Notes under the pieces: generated by a model
Seen by the model: only the letters and a program-made list of their open reading frames with translations
The model's database searches: none
What the model was told of the DNA's origin: nothing
Translations under genes and position numbers: made by a program
Source: an uncultured delta proteobacterium
Lineage (GTDB): Bacteria; Desulfobacterota; Binatia; UBA9968
Length of the DNA stretch: 64,000 nt
Assembly: GCA_963816145.1 (NCBI GenBank)
Contig: CAWFJP010000029.1
Coordinates: 416,001 to 480,000, forward strand
Direction: 5' to 3'
Shown here: positions 14,962-22,682 of the stretch, piece by piece
Layout of the letters: every line of letters begins with the position of its first letter
How positions within the stretch are numbered: the first letter of the stretch is position 1

Positions 14962-15124
14962 AAAGGAAGTATCTCATTGGTTATTTGGACGACGCAAGAG
15001 GTGGATTCAAAGTTGGCTTTGTACCTGCCCGATTCAGTCAAACTTCATGCTACATTCCTCACCCTCATAGCTCTTGAAGTCCCAGATAGCGACCGATATT
15101 ATCCCGCCGAAGGAGAATTTCTCG

Positions 15125-16522
15125 ATGGCCGAACGGACTCTCTACGACAAGATTTGGCAATCGCATACGGTGGGCATCCTGCCGACCGGCCAAACCCAGC
15201 TCTTTATCGGGCTTCATCTAATTCATGAAATCACCACCGCGCCGGCGTTCGATATGCTCAGGGAAAAGGGCATGGACGTGGCATTCCGCGATCGTACCTT
15301 TGCGACCGTCGATCACATCGTTCCCACCGACATGCGCCAACGGCCATTCAAGGATCAAGAGGCCGAAGATCTCACCCAAGCGTTGGAAAGAAACGTCGCC
15401 CAGTTCGGCGTCGAATTTTTCGGCCTCGACAGCATGAACCAAGGCATCGTCCATGTAATCGGACCGCAGCTGGGTCTGACGCAGCCGGGCATGACGCTGG
15501 CCTGCGGCGACAGCCATACGAGCACCCATGGCGCCTTCGGAACGTTGGCCTTCGGCATCGGCACCAGCCAGGTGCGCGATGTCTTGGCGACGCAGACCCT
15601 GGCGATGGACAAATTGAAAGTGCGCCGCATCAACGTCAATGGCGCGCTTGGCACCGGAGTTTATGCCAAAGACGTGATCCTGCATATCATCCGCCAGCTG
15701 GGGGTCGGCGGCGGCAAAGGATTTGCCTACGAGTACGGCGGCGAGGTGATCGACCGGATGAACATGGAAGAGCGCATGACCGTGTGCAACATGAGCATCG
15801 AGGGCGGCGCTTTGGTCGGTTACGTCAATCCGGATCAGACGACATTCGATTACATCAAAGGGCGGCCTCATGCGCCCAAGGGCGAGGCGTTCGATAAGGC
15901 GGTCAAGTACTGGCAGTCGGTGGCCTCGGACGCCGATGCGAAGTTCGACGATGTGGTGAATTATGACGGTAAAGACATCGAGCCGACGGTGACCTGGGGT
16001 ATCAACCCGGGGCAGTCGGTCGGCGTGTCGGAAAAACTGCCGTTGCCGGAAAAGTCGAGCGATCCCGAGAGCTCAAAGAAGGCTTATGAACATATGGGCT
16101 GGACACCCGGGGCGCCGATCATCGGCACGCCGGTGAATGTCGCTTTCATCGGTTCCTGCACCAACGGCCGGCTCGCCGATTTCCGCGCCGCGGCGAAGAT
16201 CGCCAAGGGGCGCAAGGTAAATCCCAATGTGCGCGCCCTCGTGGTGCCTGGATCTGCCGAGGTAAAGAAACTTGCCGAGGCGGAGGGTTTAGACAAAATC
16301 TTTGAAGAAGCGGGATTTCAGTGGCGCGAGGCCGGCTGTTCAATGTGCTTGGCGATGAACCCCGACAAACTCAATGGCCGGGAAATTTCCGCGTCGTCGT
16401 CCAATCGCAACTTCATCGGCCGGCAGGGCAGCCCGCAGGGCCGAACCCTGTTGATGAGTCCGGCGATGGTGGTGGCGGCCGCTCTCAACGGCAAAGTCGT
16501 CGACGTGCGCGAGTACGAATAA
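15125..16522 (+). CDS. leuC: 3-isopropylmalate dehydratase large subunit
   Basis: [48 protein letters not shown]; AAGGAG RBS. Confidence 0.95.
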
Positions 16523-16531
16523 CGGAACGAG

Positions 16532-16629
16532 GTTCAAATCGTTCAAAAAGTTCAAGCCGTTCAAATTGTTCCGCATCTGTACACGGCTTGAGCGGAGCGC
16601 AGCGGTTGAACGGTTTGAACGACTTGAAC
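16532..16629. repeat. Tandem-repeat palindrome: 4x GTTCAA (9-bp period) ... 3x TTGAAC
   Basis: GTTCAA at 16532, 16541, 16550, 16559; TTGAAC at 16606, 16615, 16624; lies between leuC and leuD. Confidence 0.85.
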
Positions 16630-16652
16630 TGATTTGGACCTAGTGAGGAACC

Positions 16653-17267
16653 ATGAGTGAAATAATTAAGATCGTCAAAATTACCGGCACGGCGCTGCCG
16701 ATGCGCGGCAACGAAATCGACACCGATCGGATCATTCCGGCGCGCTATTTAAAAGAGGTTACTTTTTCGCGCATGGGCGACTATCCGTTCTTCGACGAGC
16801 GCTACACCAGCGAGGGCAAGAAGAAGGATCATCCGTTCAACGATCCCGAGTATAGCGGCGCGTCGATTTTGTTCGTCAACAAGAACTTCGGCTGCGGCTC
16901 GTCGCGCGAGCATGCGCCGCAGGCGCTCAACCGTTTCGGCATCAAAGTCATCGTCGGCGAATCTTTCGCGGCGATCTTCGCCGGCAATTGTACCATGATG
17001 GGCGTGCCGACGGTGACGGTGAGCGAAAGGGACATGCAGCAGCTGATGAAGAGTGTCGAGGAAAACCCCAAGACCGAGTACACCGTCGATATCGACAACA
17101 AGACCTTGACCTACGGTAACGTGAAGATCGCCATCGACCTGCCGGAAACTTACCGCACGGCCTTGACCATGGGATCTTGGGATTCCACCGCGCTGTTGCG
17201 CGCCAATCTCGATCAGGTCAAACAAACCGCCAAGAAATTGCCTTACATGAACAACTTCGCGGGTTAG
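16653..17267 (+). CDS. leuD: 3-isopropylmalate dehydratase small subunit
   Basis: IDTDRIIPARYL, NFGCGSSREHAP, ESFAAIF. Confidence 0.95.
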   Translation: MSEIIKIVKITGTALPMRGNEIDTDRIIPARYLKEVTFSRMGDYPFFDERYTSEGKKKDHPFNDPEYSGASILFVNKNFGCGSSREHAPQALNRFGIKVIVGESFAAIFAGNCTMMGVPTVTVSERDMQQLMKSVEENPKTEYTVDIDNKTLTYGNVKIAIDLPETYRTALTMGSWDSTALLRANLDQVKQTAKKLPYMNNFAG

Positions 17268-17275
17268 CGACGCAA

Positions 17276-17536
17276 GAGATCGGAGATCGGATAAGAGATG
17301 TCTCCCGCAAAGTAACTCATGTACGGGTCGGCACAACACAGCAAATGAAAATGAGCTGCGCCACGTTCAAAGCAACGACGGAAATCCCCCAATGGCCCCC
17401 TTTGCCAAAGGGGGCGGGCCGAAGGACCGGGGGATTTTTTGCCTTTGATCGGCATTTTCATAAGAGGCGCAAAGCGCGCGCAGTTCGGAATGATAAAATA
17501 GGAAAAAACTTTGCGCGCTTGGCGGCTTGGCGCGAT
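17276..17536. repeat. Compound intergenic palindromes (GAGATCG, CCCCCTTTG..AAAGGGGG and CGCAAAG/CTTGGCG types)
   Basis: gagatcggagatcgg; ccccctttgccaaaggggg flanked by atccccc/gggggat; gcgcaaagcgcgc...tttgcgcgcttggcggcttggcgcg. Confidence 0.6.
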
Positions 17537-17611
17537 AAAGTTTTCTGATTGAGTGTCGGCGAACCTCTAAAAAGTCAGAATCTAACTTCAGCGGTATAAC
17601 ACCCGTGACCC

Positions 17612-18310
17612 ATGGCTGAACGGATTGTTTCCATGCACGCCGCCCATCGCAGCGGCAAGGATGTTGTCGACGGATTTCTTTCCCGGCCGACGGCCGGCGG
17701 CGAACGGCCGGCGATCGTTTTGGTCCACGGCTACCGCGGCCTGGACGACGGCCAGCGGGCGGTGACGCGCCGCTTCGCGCAAGAGGGGTTTGTTTGCTTG
17801 TCGCCGGATCTATTTCACGGCAAGACCTACCATACCCTGGAAGAGTGCGCGCTCAAGAAGACTTCGTTGGACATTCCCCACGCGGTCAACCAGATCGTCG
17901 ACAGCGTGCCCTATCTGCGCAAGCTGCCTTGGGTCGGCAAGAAGAAAGTCGCAGTTTTGGGCTTCTGCATGGGTGGCGGTTTGGCGCTCTATGCCTTGGC
18001 GCAGTCTAAAGCCTTCGATGCCGGGGTGATTTACTATCAGAGCATGTTTCCCGATCCCGAGGATCTGAAGAGTATCTCGGCGCCGATGCTGTGCCATTAC
18101 GGCACCGACGATCGCGGCACGACCCAGACCGAGATCGACATGTTTCGCGAGAGCTTGGAGCGGCACAAGAAAAAATTTCACATCGAGATGTATTCCGGCG
18201 CCGGCCACGCATTCCTCAACAACCCGTCGAGTAAAAACGCGGCCAACCGCGATGCCGCCGCTAAATCGGTTATCACCACAGCCAAGTGGCTGAAAAAAGT
18301 GCTGGCCTAG
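17612..18310 (+). CDS. Dienelactone hydrolase family protein
   Basis: Nucleophile elbow GFCMGG, YSGAGHAF. Confidence 0.9.
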   Translation: MAERIVSMHAAHRSGKDVVDGFLSRPTAGGERPAIVLVHGYRGLDDGQRAVTRRFAQEGFVCLSPDLFHGKTYHTLEECALKKTSLDIPHAVNQIVDSVPYLRKLPWVGKKKVAVLGFCMGGGLALYALAQSKAFDAGVIYYQSMFPDPEDLKSISAPMLCHYGTDDRGTTQTEIDMFRESLERHKKKFHIEMYSGAGHAFLNNPSSKNAANRDAAAKSVITTAKWLKKVLA

Positions 18311-18337
18311 CATTAAATAAAGTCCTGGAGGACAACA

Positions 18338-18643
18338 ATGGCGAACAAGTGGGACGAACGTAAGAAAGCGCAAGAGGACGAGTACTTCGTCAAGAAGGAA
18401 CGCGAACAGCTGGCGAAATTAAAGGCTAAACAGGAAGCGGAAGCCAAAGAGACGGCGAATAAAGTCGTCCACATGCGCTGTCCCAAATGCGGCGAGCCGC
18501 TAAAGGCGCGGAGCTTCCAGAAGATCGAGATCGATCAGTGCACCGGTTGCAATGGCATCTGGCTCGATGCCGGTGAACTTGAGCAAGTCGCCGAAAAGGA
18601 TGAGGGCAGTTGGCTCGGCAGGTTCTGGCAGAAAAACGGCTGA
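18338..18643 (+). CDS. Small protein: charged N-terminal helix (IF1-like) + zf-TFIIB-type zinc ribbon
   Basis: GGAGG RBS; MRCPKCG...IDQCTGCNGIWLDAGELE zinc ribbon. Confidence 0.8.
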   Translation: MANKWDERKKAQEDEYFVKKEREQLAKLKAKQEAEAKETANKVVHMRCPKCGEPLKARSFQKIEIDQCTGCNGIWLDAGELEQVAEKDEGSWLGRFWQKNG

Positions 18644-18705
18644 TAGCGACAAGTCGCGAGGCTTGGGTTCGGAAGATTGGCCGCAGGAACCAAAAACCGG
18701 GAAGA

Positions 18706-18843
18706 GCCGCAAAGGGCGCAAAGACCAAAGATGACGGAACGAGCCGTCATCCCGAGGGAACACGAGGGATTCAAGACCGGATTTCTCCCAAGGGTCGACA
18801 TGACAACATTTCCGGTGCTTGCGCCTTTGCGCCTTGGCGAGAG
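18706..18843. repeat. CGCAAAG-type palindrome with an embedded GTCATCCCG-type element
   Basis: gccgcaaagggcgcaaag ... gtcatcccgagg ... cttgcgcctttgcgccttggcg. Confidence 0.6.
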
Positions 18844-18884
18844 ACTCCGTAATTCGAAACCGTAATTGACCAAAGGAGACGACC

Positions 18885-19445
18885 ATGAAAAAATAGTAAG
18901 TGGTTTATCATTGGCATTGGCGATAGCTGTGGCTGCAAGCCGCGGCGCTGGTTTCGGCGCAAGAGGGCAAAATCGTCCCGTATGTGCCGACGCCGCAGGA
19001 GGTCGTCGACCGCATGCTCGAATTGGCCCAAGTTAAGAAGGGCGATGTCGTCTACGATCTCGGGTCGGGGGACGGGCGCATCGTCGTGACCGCGGCGAAA
19101 AAATACGGCGTCAAGGCGATCGGCTTCGAAATCGATCCGCAGCGCATCAAAGAATCGCATGAGAACATCAAGAAGGCCGGGGTCGAGAATTTGGTCGAGA
19201 TCCGCCAGCAAGATATTCGCACGGTCGATTTGTCGGCGGCCAACGTGCTGACGATGTATTTGCTGCCCGAAGTGAATCTGATGATCCGTCCGAATATCTG
19301 GAAACAGATGAAGCCGGGATCGCGCGTCGTGTCCCATGATTTCGATATGGGCGATTGGAAGCCGCTCAAGACGGAGTATATCAAGGACGGGTCGAGCTGG
19401 GATCACACGCTTTATCTCTGGCATGTCGAGGCGGCGAAGAAATAG
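18885..19445 (+). CDS. Class I SAM-dependent methyltransferase with probable signal peptide (compensating indels in the 5' part)
   Basis: VPYVPTP, YDLGSGDGRI, VVSHDF. AAAGGAG RBS and ATG at 18885 are in frame with ORF 18984; MKKIVSGLSLALAIAV is readable in the shifted frame. Confidence 0.8.
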
Positions 19446-19463: not shown

Positions 19464-20618
19464 ATGGTTATGCAACTGACACGAGTACTGTTTGGCGCGC
19501 TGATAGCGGTCGGCTATTTCCCCAGTCTGTCCTTGGCACAAATCAAAATCGGCGTCGCCGAAGCGTTGACCGGCAATGCGGCGCAGTATGGCGTGCCGAT
19601 CCGCAAGGGCTTCGAGCTGGCAGTAAGTGAGATCAACGGCAGCGGCGGCATCAATGGCCAAAAGATCGAGCTTGTCGTTGAAGACGAGCAGGGCAAGAAA
19701 GAAGATGCGATCAACGTTTTCAAGAAACTGATCTTTCAGGACAAGGTGTTGATGCTGTTCGGCCCGACGCTGTCCAACTCGGCACAGGCCTCCGATCCGG
19801 TGGCCCAGGGCGCCAAGGTGGTGGTGTTCGGCACGTCGAATACCGCCGACGGCATCACCTCCATCGGTAACTTTGTATTTCGCAATTCGGTCACTGAGGC
19901 TGATATCTTGCCGGTGACTCTGAAGGTTGCGACGCAGAAAACCGGTCTGAAAAAAGTCGCGGTGCTTTACGGCAACGACGATATTTTTACCAAAAGCGGC
20001 TACGACAATTTCAAGAAAGCGCTGCAAGCGCTAAAAATCCCAGTGACCACGACCGAGACTTTCGCCAAGGGCGACGTCGATTTCAAACCGCAGCTGACCA
20101 AGATCAAAGCGAGCAATGCCGACGCTGTGGTGCTCTCGGCATTGGTGGCCGAGGGTGCGCCGGCGATGGTGCAAGCGCGGCAATTAGGCATCATGTTGCC
20201 GTTTATCGGCGGCAACGGCATGAACTCGCCCAAGGTCTTCGACCTCGCCAAGGACAATTCCGACAACCTATGGGTCGGCAGCCCCTGGTCCATAGAGAAT
20301 CCCGCGGCGGAGAACAAGCGCTTCGTCGCCGCCTATCAGAAGGCGCAAAACGCATTGCCCGACCAGTTCGCCGCCCAAGCCTACGACGCCGTGTACATCG
20401 TCGCCCAGGCATTGAAGAAGGTTAAGCTCAGCGGCAAGCTAGAAGCCGATCGCAGCAACCTGCGCAATGCTTTGCCGGCGGTGCAAATCACCGGCGCCAC
20501 TGGAGCTTTCAAGTTCCGCCAGGTGACGGGTAGAGACGGCAAGCCGGCCGGTTACGATGCCGTGCAGACCGCCATCGTGATGATGACCAAGGGCAACCAG
20601 TACGTCATTCAAAAATAG
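19464..20618 (+). CDS. Branched-chain amino acid ABC transporter substrate-binding protein (LivK-like)
   Basis: Signal peptide, IKIGV...LTG, INGSGGINGQKIEL, AAQAYDAV. Confidence 0.9.
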   Translation: MVMQLTRVLFGALIAVGYFPSLSLAQIKIGVAEALTGNAAQYGVPIRKGFELAVSEINGSGGINGQKIELVVEDEQGKKEDAINVFKKLIFQDKVLMLFGPTLSNSAQASDPVAQGAKVVVFGTSNTADGITSIGNFVFRNSVTEADILPVTLKVATQKTGLKKVAVLYGNDDIFTKSGYDNFKKALQALKIPVTTTETFAKGDVDFKPQLTKIKASNADAVVLSALVAEGAPAMVQARQLGIMLPFIGGNGMNSPKVFDLAKDNSDNLWVGSPWSIENPAAENKRFVAAYQKAQNALPDQFAAQAYDAVYIVAQALKKVKLSGKLEADRSNLRNALPAVQITGATGAFKFRQVTGRDGKPAGYDAVQTAIVMMTKGNQYVIQK

Positions 20619-20621
20619 CAG

Positions 20622-21503
20622 ATGCTTGCCCAGCAACTCGTTAATGCGATTTCACTGGGCGGTGTCTACGCGCTCTTCGCTCTCGGATTTACTCTGATCT
20701 TCGGCGTCTTGAACGTCGTCAATCTCGCCCATGGCGCCATGTTCATGCTCGGCGCCTACACGGCGCTGCAGGCGGTGTTGTTATTCAAGCTTCCCCTGGC
20801 AGCGGCCGTTCTGGCGGCTATCGCCGTAACGGCCGGCGCCGGCTGGCTGCTCGACCGCTTCATCTTCGCGCCGCTGCGGGCGCGCCAGGCGCCGCACTTG
20901 GCGCCGATGATTGCCACCATCGGTTTGGCGATCTCGCTCAACAGCACGATCCAAGGAATCTTCGGCGCCGAGAATCTGCGCTTCCCGGTGCATGGCTTGG
21001 CCGCCGACGGGTTGCGACTGGGCGGTGTGCAAATCACCTGGCTGGAACTGCAAATCATTTTTCTGGCATTCCTGTTGATGGCGGTTCTGCTGTGGTGGCT
21101 CATGCGCACGCGCATGGGTACGGCACTGCGCGCACTGGCCGAGTCGCGCAAAGCCGCGGCGCTCTTGGGTATCGATGTCGAGGGGCTGTTTCGTCTGACC
21201 TCGGTGATCGCATCTTTGCTGGGCGGCGTGGCCGGCGTTTTGATCGCGCTCTACACCAACGCGGTGTTTCCCCAAATGGGTCAGCCGATGCTGCACAAGG
21301 GCATCGCCGTGGTCATCCTTGGCGGCATGGGCGACATCCGCGGCGCCTTGCTCGGCGGCTTTTTCCTCGGCTGCGCCGAAGTCTTTTCGGTCGCCTACGT
21401 CGGCTCGACCATGCGCGATGCCGTGGCGTTCGGCTTACTATTCGCAATTCTACTTCTTCGGCCGGAAGGATTGTTCGGCAAAGCCGCCCAGCGGCGGGCG
21501 TGA
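20622..21503 (+). CDS. livH: Branched-chain amino acid ABC transporter permease (LivH-like)
   Basis: YALFALGFTLIFGVLNVVNLAHG, ILGGMG, LLLRPEGLFG. Confidence 0.9.
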   Translation: MLAQQLVNAISLGGVYALFALGFTLIFGVLNVVNLAHGAMFMLGAYTALQAVLLFKLPLAAAVLAAIAVTAGAGWLLDRFIFAPLRARQAPHLAPMIATIGLAISLNSTIQGIFGAENLRFPVHGLAADGLRLGGVQITWLELQIIFLAFLLMAVLLWWLMRTRMGTALRALAESRKAAALLGIDVEGLFRLTSVIASLLGGVAGVLIALYTNAVFPQMGQPMLHKGIAVVILGGMGDIRGALLGGFFLGCAEVFSVAYVGSTMRDAVAFGLLFAILLLRPEGLFGKAAQRRA

Positions 21504-21524
21504 TCGAAACATCCTGCGGGTTTC

Positions 21525-21552
21525 GTTCAAGGTTCAAAGGTTCAAAGTTCAA
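21525..21552. repeat. 4x GTTCAA tandem repeat
   Basis: gttcaaggttcaaaggttcaaagttcaa. Confidence 0.7.
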
Positions 21553-21649
21553 GGTCGGAGCGCGAGATTCGTCGACGTGTGGTGCTGAGATCAATTTTTA
21601 TTGGTTGTCGGGTGATAGAAATCCCTCGCGTGTAGAAAAGCTAATGTCC

Positions 21650-21742
21650 GTCATGCCGGCGCAGGCCGGCATCCAGTCTTGCTCGGATCGAGCTTCGGCC
21701 TGCCACCGAAGACGCCTGGATTCCGGCTTCCGCCGGAATGAC
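21650..21742. repeat. REP-like inverted repeat (GTCATxCCGG...CCGGAATGAC)
   Basis: gtcatgccggcgcaggccggcatccag ... ctggattccggcttccgccggaatgac. Confidence 0.8.
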
Positions 21743-21821
21743 AGAAGGAAAGTGAACTTCGAGTCGATAGTTTGACAAGCCGTTGGCTTTGAGCCGAGGG
21801 TTGCTGGTTTCAGATCATCGT

Positions 21822-22682
21822 ATGGAATGGCTAGAGACCTTTTGGGCGACTTACAGCACTCTGGTGCTTTCCATCGGCACCAACGTGCTATTGGCGCTGT
21901 CGATCTATTTGACGCTTGCCTGCGGGCTTTTGACCGTCGCCAATGCCGCCTTCATGGGTATCGGCGCCTATACCGCGGCGCTGCTCAGTTTGCACAGCGG
22001 TTTGCCTTTCTATTTGTCTTTGGTGCTCGGAGCGCTGCTGCCCGCAGCGGTGGCCTTGTTGCTCGGTCCGCCGACACTGCGGTTGTCGGGAGTTTATCTG
22101 GCGATGGCGACCTTGGCCTTAGGCGAGATCGTCCGGATATTTCTGCTCAACAGCGAAAATCTCACCGGCGGCGCTCTCGGCCTTAACGGCATCCCGCAGC
22201 ATACCCAATGGTACGATGTTGTCGTGATTGTTGTCGCCGCGCTGTATACGCTCTTGCGCGTCGCCGGTTCGCGCATCGGTCGAACGATGGTGGCGATCTG
22301 TCAGGATGAAGTCGCGACGGAACTCACGGGGCTCAACGTGCGCGCGTACAAGCTTGTCGCCTTCACGCTTGGCGCCGGGCTGGCCGGGCTTGCGGGCGGC
22401 TTGAACGCTCACTTCACTTTTTTCATCAGCCCGAACGAGTACGGCTTTGACCGTGGCGTGGAGATCTTGGCGATGGGGGTGCTCGGCGGCACCGGTAGCC
22501 CCTGGGGCGCGGTCATCGGCGGCGTGCTAATCACGCTCCTGCCGGAGTTACTGCGTGGTCTCGGCAATTACCGGCCGTTGATCAACGGGGTGATTCTGAT
22601 CGTCATCATTCTTTATTCTCCCAAGGGAATCTGGGATCTCACGCGTTTTATCCGGGTCAAGCGTGCCGCGGCAGCCAACTAG
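21822..22682 (+). CDS. livM: Branched-chain amino acid ABC transporter permease (LivM-like)
   Basis: FMGIGAY, LRLSGVYLAMATLA, LTGGALG, VLGGTGS. Confidence 0.9.
   Translation: MEWLETFWATYSTLVLSIGTNVLLALSIYLTLACGLLTVANAAFMGIGAYTAALLSLHSGLPFYLSLVLGALLPAAVALLLGPPTLRLSGVYLAMATLALGEIVRIFLLNSENLTGGALGLNGIPQHTQWYDVVVIVVAALYTLLRVAGSRIGRTMVAICQDEVATELTGLNVRAYKLVAFTLGAGLAGLAGGLNAHFTFFISPNEYGFDRGVEILAMGVLGGTGSPWGAVIGGVLITLLPELLRGLGNYRPLINGVILIVIILYSPKGIWDLTRFIRVKRAAAAN

Follow-up and report, generated by a model that had tools for sequence, protein, structure and literature searches.

The gene and its surroundings

The window, that is, the entire stretch of 64,000 nucleotides (nts) from contig 29 that was analyzed here, comes from an uncultured delta proteobacterium of the class Binatia and carries on its forward strand a short open reading frame (ORF) whose product joins a predicted long N-terminal helix to a zinc ribbon and an aromatic C-terminal tail (Table 1). 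The protein begins MANKWDERKKAQEDEYFVKKEREQLAKLK. With a good Shine–Dalgarno sequence and several hundred close relatives among Candidatus Binatia, this reading frame is a real gene. Of 689 candidates collected, 687 are relatives of the window protein at E ≤ 0.001; the best 120 of them share 82–92% identity with it and are mostly 101 amino acids (aa) long. Where the source gives these close relatives a name, they appear as "zf-TFIIB domain-containing protein" from Candidatus Binatia. NCBIfam returned no match above its cut-offs for the window protein, and the protein is not named by any curated family.

The gene starts 27 nts past a gene of the dienelactone hydrolase (DLH) family, and a gene resembling SAM methyltransferases begins 340 nts downstream. 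Farther upstream, at 15074–17267, lie ORFs of 482 and 204 aa whose translations resemble the large and small subunits of 3-isopropylmalate dehydratase (leuC and leuD). Farther downstream, at 19464–22682, the translations of three ORFs of 384, 293, and 299 aa resemble a branched-chain amino acid ABC transporter, comprising one substrate-binding protein and two permeases. A scan for promoters and terminators across 17300–19100 gave counts no higher than those in shuffled sequences. One of four soil metatranscriptome runs (X1) yielded a 268-nt contig that spans 18342–18609 with three differences. As DNA may occur in such libraries, this contig is only a hint of transcription, and stretches that no contig covers carry no information.

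Table 1. Features of the helix–ribbon gene in the window, of its paralogs in the host genome, and of related loci with a second architecture
Feature	Position	Strand	Basis
101-aa ORF, stop included, encoding an IF1-like helix, a PF13453 zinc ribbon, and an aromatic tail	18338..18643	+	Translation, Pfam
Shine–Dalgarno-like GGAGG, 6 nts 5′ of the ATG	18327..18331	+	Read from the sequence
Predicted long N-terminal α-helix, residues 2–44	18341..18469	+	AlphaFold2, alignment A1
IF1-like motif, residues 5–29 (W5...K29), aligned to bovine IF1 22–46	18350..18424	+	Pfam, HMMER, helix profile, conservation counts; residue roles from PMC3041923
Zn_ribbon_TFIIB (PF13453), residues 47–86, ligands C48, C51, C68, C71	18476..18595	+	Pfam
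C-terminal aromatic/basic tail SWLGRFWQKN, residues 91–100	18608..18637	+	Predicted helix 93–100
Host helix–ribbon paralogs besides the window copy	L001:1486-1842; L003:1477-1824; L166:1456-1806		Helix profile of the host genome
Helix plus TerB-like protein	L171:585-1148	+	Helix profile, translation read
Helix plus TerB-like protein	L174:293-895	-	Helix profile, translation read
Helix plus TerB-like protein	L175:347-925	-	Helix profile, translation read
Helix plus TerB-like protein	L170:677-1231	-	Helix profile, translation read

Architecture of the protein

The architecture was modeled with AlphaFold2 on alignment A1, which comprises 35 diverse helix–ribbon proteins that are 25–51% identical to the query. 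The model (mean pLDDT 81.7, pTM 0.43) contains the long helix of residues 2–44, the ribbon, and two further helices at 78–88 and 93–100. The first of the three helices is predicted with pLDDT values of 84–94 over residues 1–30, while the last is modeled at a low 51–59; a tail of the W-[LF]-x-[RK]-[FL]-[FW] type is present in most rows of A1. K, E, A, and Q abound in the long helix, whose few hydrophobic positions do not follow a regular heptad. A DksA/TraR-like identity, that is, a coiled coil carrying a C4 zinc finger, was considered and rejected: no such Pfam family matched at E ≤ 10, and a single helix is predicted where that fold has two.

The CxxC...CxxC ribbon that the preliminary description had placed after the helix is indeed there. 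Pfam assigns it to PF13453 with E = 5.1e-17 and 61.4 bits, well above the family cut-off of 22 bits, and its cysteines are arranged as C48-x2-C51 and C68-x2-C71, with C48 and C68 invariant and C51 and C71 at least 90% conserved in A1. To judge from the sequence, this Cys4 arrangement is what would be expected of an ordinary structural zinc site, in which some relatives replace one ligand; gating of the protein by zinc or redox state, which the preliminary description had put forward, would be possible in principle but speculative. Only one relative of this ribbon has a solved structure, the Thermus thermophilus protein ZifS/TTHA0897 (PDB 8yoz), which shares the PF13453 domain and was found by phmmer (8yoz_A, E = 6.1e-5), by profile (8e-13), and as the top Foldseek match (8yoz_B, E = 8e-4). 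The two proteins differ at the N-terminus: the ribbon of ZifS starts at residue 4 with no helix before it, and a profile of the helix (A5, below) does not match ZifS at E ≤ 10. A search of the literature outside subscription journals found no paper on the function of ZifS/TTHA0897.

Resemblance of the helix to mitochondrial IF1

The preliminary description had aligned the helix, without gaps, to the inhibitory region of bovine IF1, the mitochondrial ATPase inhibitor. HMMER reproduces that alignment. Matched to the bovine IF1 chain 2v7q_J, query residues 5–45 correspond to IF1 22–62, and over query 5–29 the same 11 identities emerge (R25, A28, E30, Y33, F34, E40, Q41, L42, A43, L45, and K46), together with a tryptophan at the position of F22. 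Against Pfam, the window protein matches the IF1 family IATP (PF04568), with residues 3–38 covering profile positions 50–84 at E = 7.5e-5, though its 23.6 bits fall short of the gathering cut-off of 25 bits, leaving it outside the curated family. Its host paralog on contig 4 scores 22.6 bits. Among the 35 diverse members of A1, IATP matches 10 at E ≤ 0.01, the window protein scoring best of all, and a precomputed PF04568 match accompanies two of the 120 listed close relatives (P0043 and P0075). The other family against which a Pfam comparison had been suggested, that of the alphaproteobacterial ζ subunit (DUF1476), gave no match at E ≤ 10. Membership in it was accordingly rejected: DUF1476 is absent both from the 17 Pfam families that match the window protein at that threshold and from the 24 families with a match at E ≤ 0.01 to at least one of the 35 proteins.

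Searches of the Protein Data Bank (PDB) point the same way. A phmmer query with the window protein gave 20 sequences at E ≤ 10; IF1 chains account for 11 of them, the best at 0.013. The helix-only profile A5, 40 positions long, was built from 33 N-terminal segments (those of the window protein, two host paralogs, and 30 related loci) and excludes the ribbon. Run against 177,635 PDB sequences, it gave 16 distinct matches at E ≤ 10, of which 14 are IF1 or IF1-family chains: 12 are named ATPase inhibitor or IF1 and come from several organisms (E 0.0018–0.58), and the other two represent At2g27730, a plant protein that was deposited as subunit P2 of complex I (6x89_P2, the best match of all at E = 0.0015, and 7a23_n at 0.036). 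The two remaining matches are Prp18 (E = 4.9) and 7dtl_A, labeled "PSK" (E = 0.005). The latter, a chain of 91 aa matched over profile positions 11–30, is the sole non-IF1 PDB chain that A5 finds at E < 0.01. A comparison of residues 1–46 with the named clusters of the ESM Atlas produced no usable match.

Specificity was also gauged on the 7.8-Mb host genome translated in six frames. IATP finds four matches there at E ≤ 1, the top three being the window protein and two of its paralogs. A5 finds exactly four places at the same threshold, all of them helix–ribbon genes, from which it follows that charged helices in general are not picked up. As a resemblance between sequences, the likeness to IF1 is thus real and specific: it goes beyond chance and holds in both search directions. 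Its scale is about 20–24 bits over some 30–40 residues of charged helix, the E-values being 1e-3 to 1e-4 at best, and HMMER statistics are optimistic for segments of such a composition, dominated by K, E, A, and Q. Whether it reflects homology or convergence turns on about 21 bits over about 30 residues, which is too little to decide. The proposal of a bacterial IF1-like helix therefore stands as far as the specific, two-way match is concerned, and has to be narrowed in that the match lies below the IATP cut-off and lacks both the region that precedes the helix in IF1 and the IF1 coiled coil.

Conservation of the IF1 contact residues

The matching residues of the helix can be set against work on bovine IF1. 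The available text of Bason et al. (2011; PMC3041923) sorts residues of the long helix, which begins at residue 21, into three groups. Group 1 (F22, A28, E30, Y33, F34, Q41, L42, and L45) provides binding energy in the final complex; group 2 (A21, R25, Q27, R37, K39, E40, A43, and A44) is needed on the binding pathway and makes no contact in that complex; group 3 (K24, E26, E31, and R35) is conserved and dispensable for inhibition. Within group 1, E30 is the only charged residue with a major contribution, made through a salt bridge to R408 of the β subunit. By this classification, as far as the available text gives it, the equivalents of group 1 in the window protein (W5, A11, E13, Y16, F17, Q24, L25, and L28) are identical at seven of eight positions and conservatively changed at the remaining one, where W5 stands for F22. 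Group 2 has three identities out of eight, plus two conservative changes, and group 3 has none out of four.

The family as a whole keeps much of this pattern. Across the 35 proteins of A1, the equivalent of E30 is glutamate without exception, that of Y33 is tyrosine in 28 and phenylalanine in six, and that of F34 is phenylalanine in 32. Aliphatic residues (L, I, or V) occupy the L42 position in 30 proteins, and L or M the L45 position in 24. These five positions, E13, Y16, F17, L25, and L28 of the window protein, are those whose conservation the preliminary description had singled out for checking, and they have held up. It had also named a lack of conservation at the IF1-matching positions as grounds for abandoning the idea; with these positions conserved in 35 homologs, the idea is not refuted on those grounds. 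Elsewhere in the motif, the equivalents of E31 (D or E in 31 of 35), K46 (K or R in 30), E40 (E in 28), F22 (L, W, M, or F in 27), R25 (K or R in 24), and A28 (A in 19) are retained to varying degrees, while that of Q41 is not conserved, glutamine occurring in three proteins.

A mobile N-terminal module

A search with the ribbon family returned 8133 proteins at E ≤ 1e-3, counted as representatives at 50% identity. Most have other ribbon architectures, including chains of two to six ribbons, and many have no helix. Among the 150 representatives listed of these 8133, the helix occurs in 44, and in all 44 it is N-terminal, with no internal instance. Four proteins carry two helix–ribbon modules in tandem. 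In each of them the ExxYF motif is preserved in the first helix; among the internal helices, those of P0139, P0188, and P0192 have lost it, and that of P0138 retains it.

Nor is the helix confined to the ribbon. Its profile, run over 41 genomes of the host class, matched 33 of them in 53 places. The 49 places outside the host divide into 34 with a ribbon (29 with all four cysteines by pattern and five with one ligand position replaced), 11 with a different, all-helical domain of about 140 aa, and four that are short or different. This second architecture, in proteins of 183–201 aa, begins with the same helix: the helices of the two architectures align over 37 columns with an hhalign probability of 97.9 and E = 4.6e-13, and by this comparison they are clearly the same module. 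R8, E13, and F17 are invariant in nine aligned proteins of the second type, and one of the four scanned matches IATP at E = 0.0014. For the helical domain, the same four proteins gave 15.8–22.4 bits to TerB (PF05099; cut-off 24.4) and 14.2–20.1 bits to DUF533 (cut-off 29.6), all under the thresholds, and Foldseek found no PDB match to its model at E ≤ 0.001; the domain is for these reasons called only TerB-like. The preliminary description, which saw the helix as fused to a zinc ribbon, was right about the window protein, and the ribbon turns out to be one of at least two architectures.

The helix is therefore a mobile, strictly N-terminal module. With its motif retained on two unrelated domains, and at the N-terminus only, it resembles an effector that has its own target, not an element that packs on the ribbon. 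The four matches with neither a ribbon nor a TerB-like domain (L197, L189, L206, and L215) could be stand-alone helices or broken genes; in L197 (G044:C3:880800-881900), a frame of at least 49 aa contains just the helix.

Distribution and genomic context

The host has four helix–ribbon paralogs, on contigs 29, 2, 4, and 31. Judging from translations, the copy on contig 31 lies directly downstream of a gene for an FtsH-like AAA protease, and that on contig 4 lies near a DksA/TraR-like zinc-finger ORF. The same genome encodes two sets of F-type ATPase genes. One, on contig 17 (L013 and L018), is a standard b-δ-α-γ-β-ε operon; the other, on contig 1 (L014 and L019), has β upstream of α, both about 50% identical to their counterparts in the first set, and by this gene order, as in N-type ATPases, it is taken to be of the N-type. 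None of the four paralogs lies near either set. A tie between the helix and N-type ATPases was tried and discarded: apart from the host, a second β-like gene closer to the N-type occurs in just two genomes sampled from the class, G047 and G065, and both are without the helix. Among 80 related loci, collected with a 12-sequence alignment, tblastn with six host ATP synthase subunits (α, β, γ, δ, b, and ε) found no match at E ≤ 1e-5 within up to 10 kb, some of these loci being short contigs. Since IF1 and, according to the literature, ζ and AtpΘ are likewise encoded apart from the enzyme, the missing linkage to atp genes is weak evidence against a function on it.

By record title, with the caveat that bin labels may be wrong, the related loci belong mainly to Binatia-like "delta proteobacterium" metagenome-assembled genomes and to Acidobacteriota (Pyrinomonadaceae, Blastocatellia, and Chloracidobacterium), with single loci labeled Myxococcota, Nitrospirae, Gemmatimonadaceae, and others. 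No helix was found in 30 genomes from other families of the host phylum, 28 of which have an F-type β subunit. This patchy pattern, with 33 of 41 genomes of the class, none of 30 from the other families, and recurrence in Acidobacteriota and further phyla, suggests lateral spread or repeated loss.

Neighboring genes are kept within clades. The order seen in the window, leuC-leuD-hydrolase-target-methyltransferase-ABC transporter, recurs in the Binatia-like loci L023, L024, and L042. In Pyrinomonadaceae and Chloracidobacterium (e.g., L069:7231-12396), a same-strand run comprises a DUF2270 membrane protein, the target, an esterase, a 151-aa protein, an inositol monophosphatase, and an accD-like gene, with a tadA-like deaminase upstream on the opposite strand; these acidobacterial neighbor clusters occur in 26–34 of the 76 loci in which the ORF caller found the target. 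These neighbors, among them the leuCD-like, DLH hydrolase, and methyltransferase genes of the window, are housekeeping genes that bear no relation to energy conversion.

A putative plug of F1 and its alternatives

The reading favored here, at a probability of roughly 40%, takes the N-terminal helix for an IF1-like plug that acts on F1, the head of ATP synthase, and is carried on a sensor or dimerizing domain. The product would be a small cytoplasmic protein whose working part is the free N-terminal helix, roughly residues 2–44. The face formed by W5, A11, E13, Y16, F17, Q24, L25, and L28 would correspond to the binding face of the IF1 inhibitory helix, and the helix would enter a catalytic α/β interface of the host F1, N-terminus first. 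There, the invariant E13 would pair with a conserved arginine of the β C-terminal domain, while Y16, F17, L25, and L28 would pack on its C-terminal helices, such that rotation is blocked in the direction of hydrolysis. The Cys4 ribbon, which starts at the equivalent of IF1 residue 63, would then sit outside F1 and could take the place of the IF1 coiled coil as a dimerizing or regulatory handle; the TerB-like domain, where present, would likewise remain outside as a dimerizing or sensing handle. We infer the target, the binding mode, and any regulation from sequence comparison.

Several observations count in favor of such a plug. The identities cluster at the residues that give IF1 its binding energy, the sequence match is specific in both directions and accompanied by family conservation that mirrors IF1, and the helix is autonomous, always N-terminal, and shared by two C-terminal domains. 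The geometry also fits, with only four residues before W5 and a helix of such length that the ribbon would stay free of F1. The host β consensus contains the residues touched by IF1 (I-L before DELSEED; V and R in KLxVARAR), and these are conserved in bacteria generally, so that they do not single out this host. On the opposite side of the ledger stand the IATP score under the cut-off, the shortness of a match to a charged helix, the want of atp genes nearby, and the patchy spread. To these are added the missing counterpart of IF1 residues 13–20, the weaker binding of F22W in bovine IF1, and P0138, which keeps the motif internally. A prediction of the complex between helix residues 1–46 and one host α/β pair (α 96–501 and β 80–468, in place of the whole α3β3γ) weighs neither for nor against the plug, its scores of 0.16 and 0.11 lying under the mark of 0.32.

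A stronger version of the F1-plug reading, and a more doubtful one, makes the helix a genuine relative, in prokaryotes, of the inhibitory region of IF1. Bacteria of several phyla (by record title Binatia, Acidobacteriota, Myxococcota, Nitrospirota, and others) would use this movable N-terminal F1 plug on different sensor or dimerizing domains, either a Cys4 ribbon or a TerB-like domain, and eukaryotic IF1 would descend from such a bacterial module instead of having originated in mitochondria.

The most serious competitor, a reading with real but less than even prospects, is that the helix docks on some other conserved cytoplasmic partner, for instance a component of the apparatus for transcription, translation, or proteolysis. 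On this view the protein would act as a small adaptor or regulator with a ZifS-like zinc ribbon, and convergence or distant descent would explain why a charged amphipathic helix, anchored by one acidic and two aromatic residues, looks like IF1. The size and variety of the ribbon family, in which 8133 representatives include many chains of ribbons without the helix and the helix marks fewer than a third of those listed, would suit an adaptor well. So would four paralogs in a single genome, one of them just behind an FtsH-like gene, along with the lack of any link to atp genes, the patchy occurrence in a phylum where F-type ATPase is near universal, and a protein that curated families leave unnamed. 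Yet no search points to an alternative partner, A5 retrieves almost nothing but IF1-family chains from the PDB, and the positions that the family conserves are the contact residues of IF1, not those that IF1 keeps for other reasons.

Distinctly less probable is a helix with no outside target, which would serve to space or dimerize the ribbon, either as a coiled coil or as a stable helix on its own, with the IF1 match a statistical accident of composition. Such an element for self-association or intramolecular contacts would accord with the bias toward K, E, A, and Q, for which a score of 20–24 bits may be flattering, with the long helix that AlphaFold2 monomer models predict confidently in both architectures, and with the two chains of ZifS in its PDB entry. 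It is hard to reconcile with a helix that has few hydrophobic residues and no regular heptad, whose invariant residue is a glutamate beside an aromatic pair, and whose motif is retained on two unrelated C-terminal domains and lost when the helix is internal. Moreover, other charged helices, whether in the PDB or in the 7.8 Mb of six-frame host translation, went unmatched.

Comparison with known inhibitors

Bacterial curbs on ATP hydrolysis when the membrane potential drops are only partly understood, and comprise subunit ε, inhibition by MgADP, the ζ subunit in alphaproteobacteria, and AtpΘ in cyanobacteria. From its sequence, the window protein is a candidate for a further bacterial brake on the wasting of ATP. 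According to the available text of a 2022 review (PMC9317440), BLAST searches for IF1 came up empty in alphaproteobacteria and gave just two suspect hits elsewhere among bacteria, and IF1 was concluded to be absent from prokaryotes. Our search of the literature outside subscription journals found no description of a helix–ribbon family or of a bacterial IF1-like protein. A widespread bacterial module with conserved residues like the IF1 contacts would give the question of how bacteria curb ATP hydrolysis a concrete object. Should it inhibit F1, the regulators of bacterial ATP synthase would gain a new class, one coupled to metal-binding domains, and the module would bear on the origin of mitochondrial IF1. 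Should it not, the family would still be large and uncharacterized, made up of small zinc-ribbon proteins whose docking helix is sharply conserved.

The C-terminal region of IF1 forms a dimerizing coiled coil with a histidine pH switch. The window protein, with its putative inhibitory function, resembles IF1 in its long N-terminal helix, in the pattern of anchors, and in carrying a separate module behind the helix, which is of a different kind: in place of the coiled coil and its switch there is a Cys4 ribbon or, in relatives, a TerB-like domain. It is also bacterial and cytoplasmic where IF1 is mitochondrial. Another difference lies ahead of the helix, where four residues before W5 leave no counterpart of IF1 residues 1–17 and no room for the γ-contacting segment (bovine 8–20); some relatives in A1 carry 8–12 more N-terminal residues, unlike those of IF1. 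In the available text of Bason et al. (2011; PMC3041923), residues 1–7 of bovine IF1 are dispensable, residues 13–20 contact γ and slow dissociation, the F22W substitution reduces affinity, and H49 is mentioned.

The ζ subunit has a short leader before its first aromatic residue, and its C-terminal domain is a helical bundle. Like the window protein, it is bacterial, has a free N-terminal helix, and does without a coiled coil; its C-terminal domain differs from the ribbon. The available portions of two sources describe the ζ helix as a mimic of IF1 that blocks F1 as a one-way pawl (PMC10469736, PMC9317440), and the latter treats ζ and IF1 as analogues that arose independently rather than as homologues. 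Measured by sequence, the window helix is much closer to IF1 than this analogue view allows for ζ. The preliminary description had listed ε and ζ as the established bacterial F1 inhibitors, a list that is incomplete: going by the available text of its description, cyanobacterial AtpΘ, an inhibitor of ATP hydrolysis, is another (10.1101/2021.07.30.454416), and it resembles the window protein in being a small stand-alone bacterial protein encoded outside the atp operon.

The plant P2 (NDUP2) protein, product of At2g27730, has the same motif as the window helix and furnishes the best A5 match in the PDB, but it is eukaryotic and was deposited in complex I, not F1. An IATP-family helix thus need not bind F1, and the motif alone does not prove F1 to be the target, which counts against the F1 plug. 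That the bacterial helix itself binds another respiratory-chain complex, by analogy with both P2 entries, is very improbable, as P2 is a plant-specific addition and nothing ties the bacterial protein to nuo genes, the flank searches having covered the ATP synthase subunits. At2g27730, deposited as subunit P2, is labeled IF1 in the accession list of one preprint.
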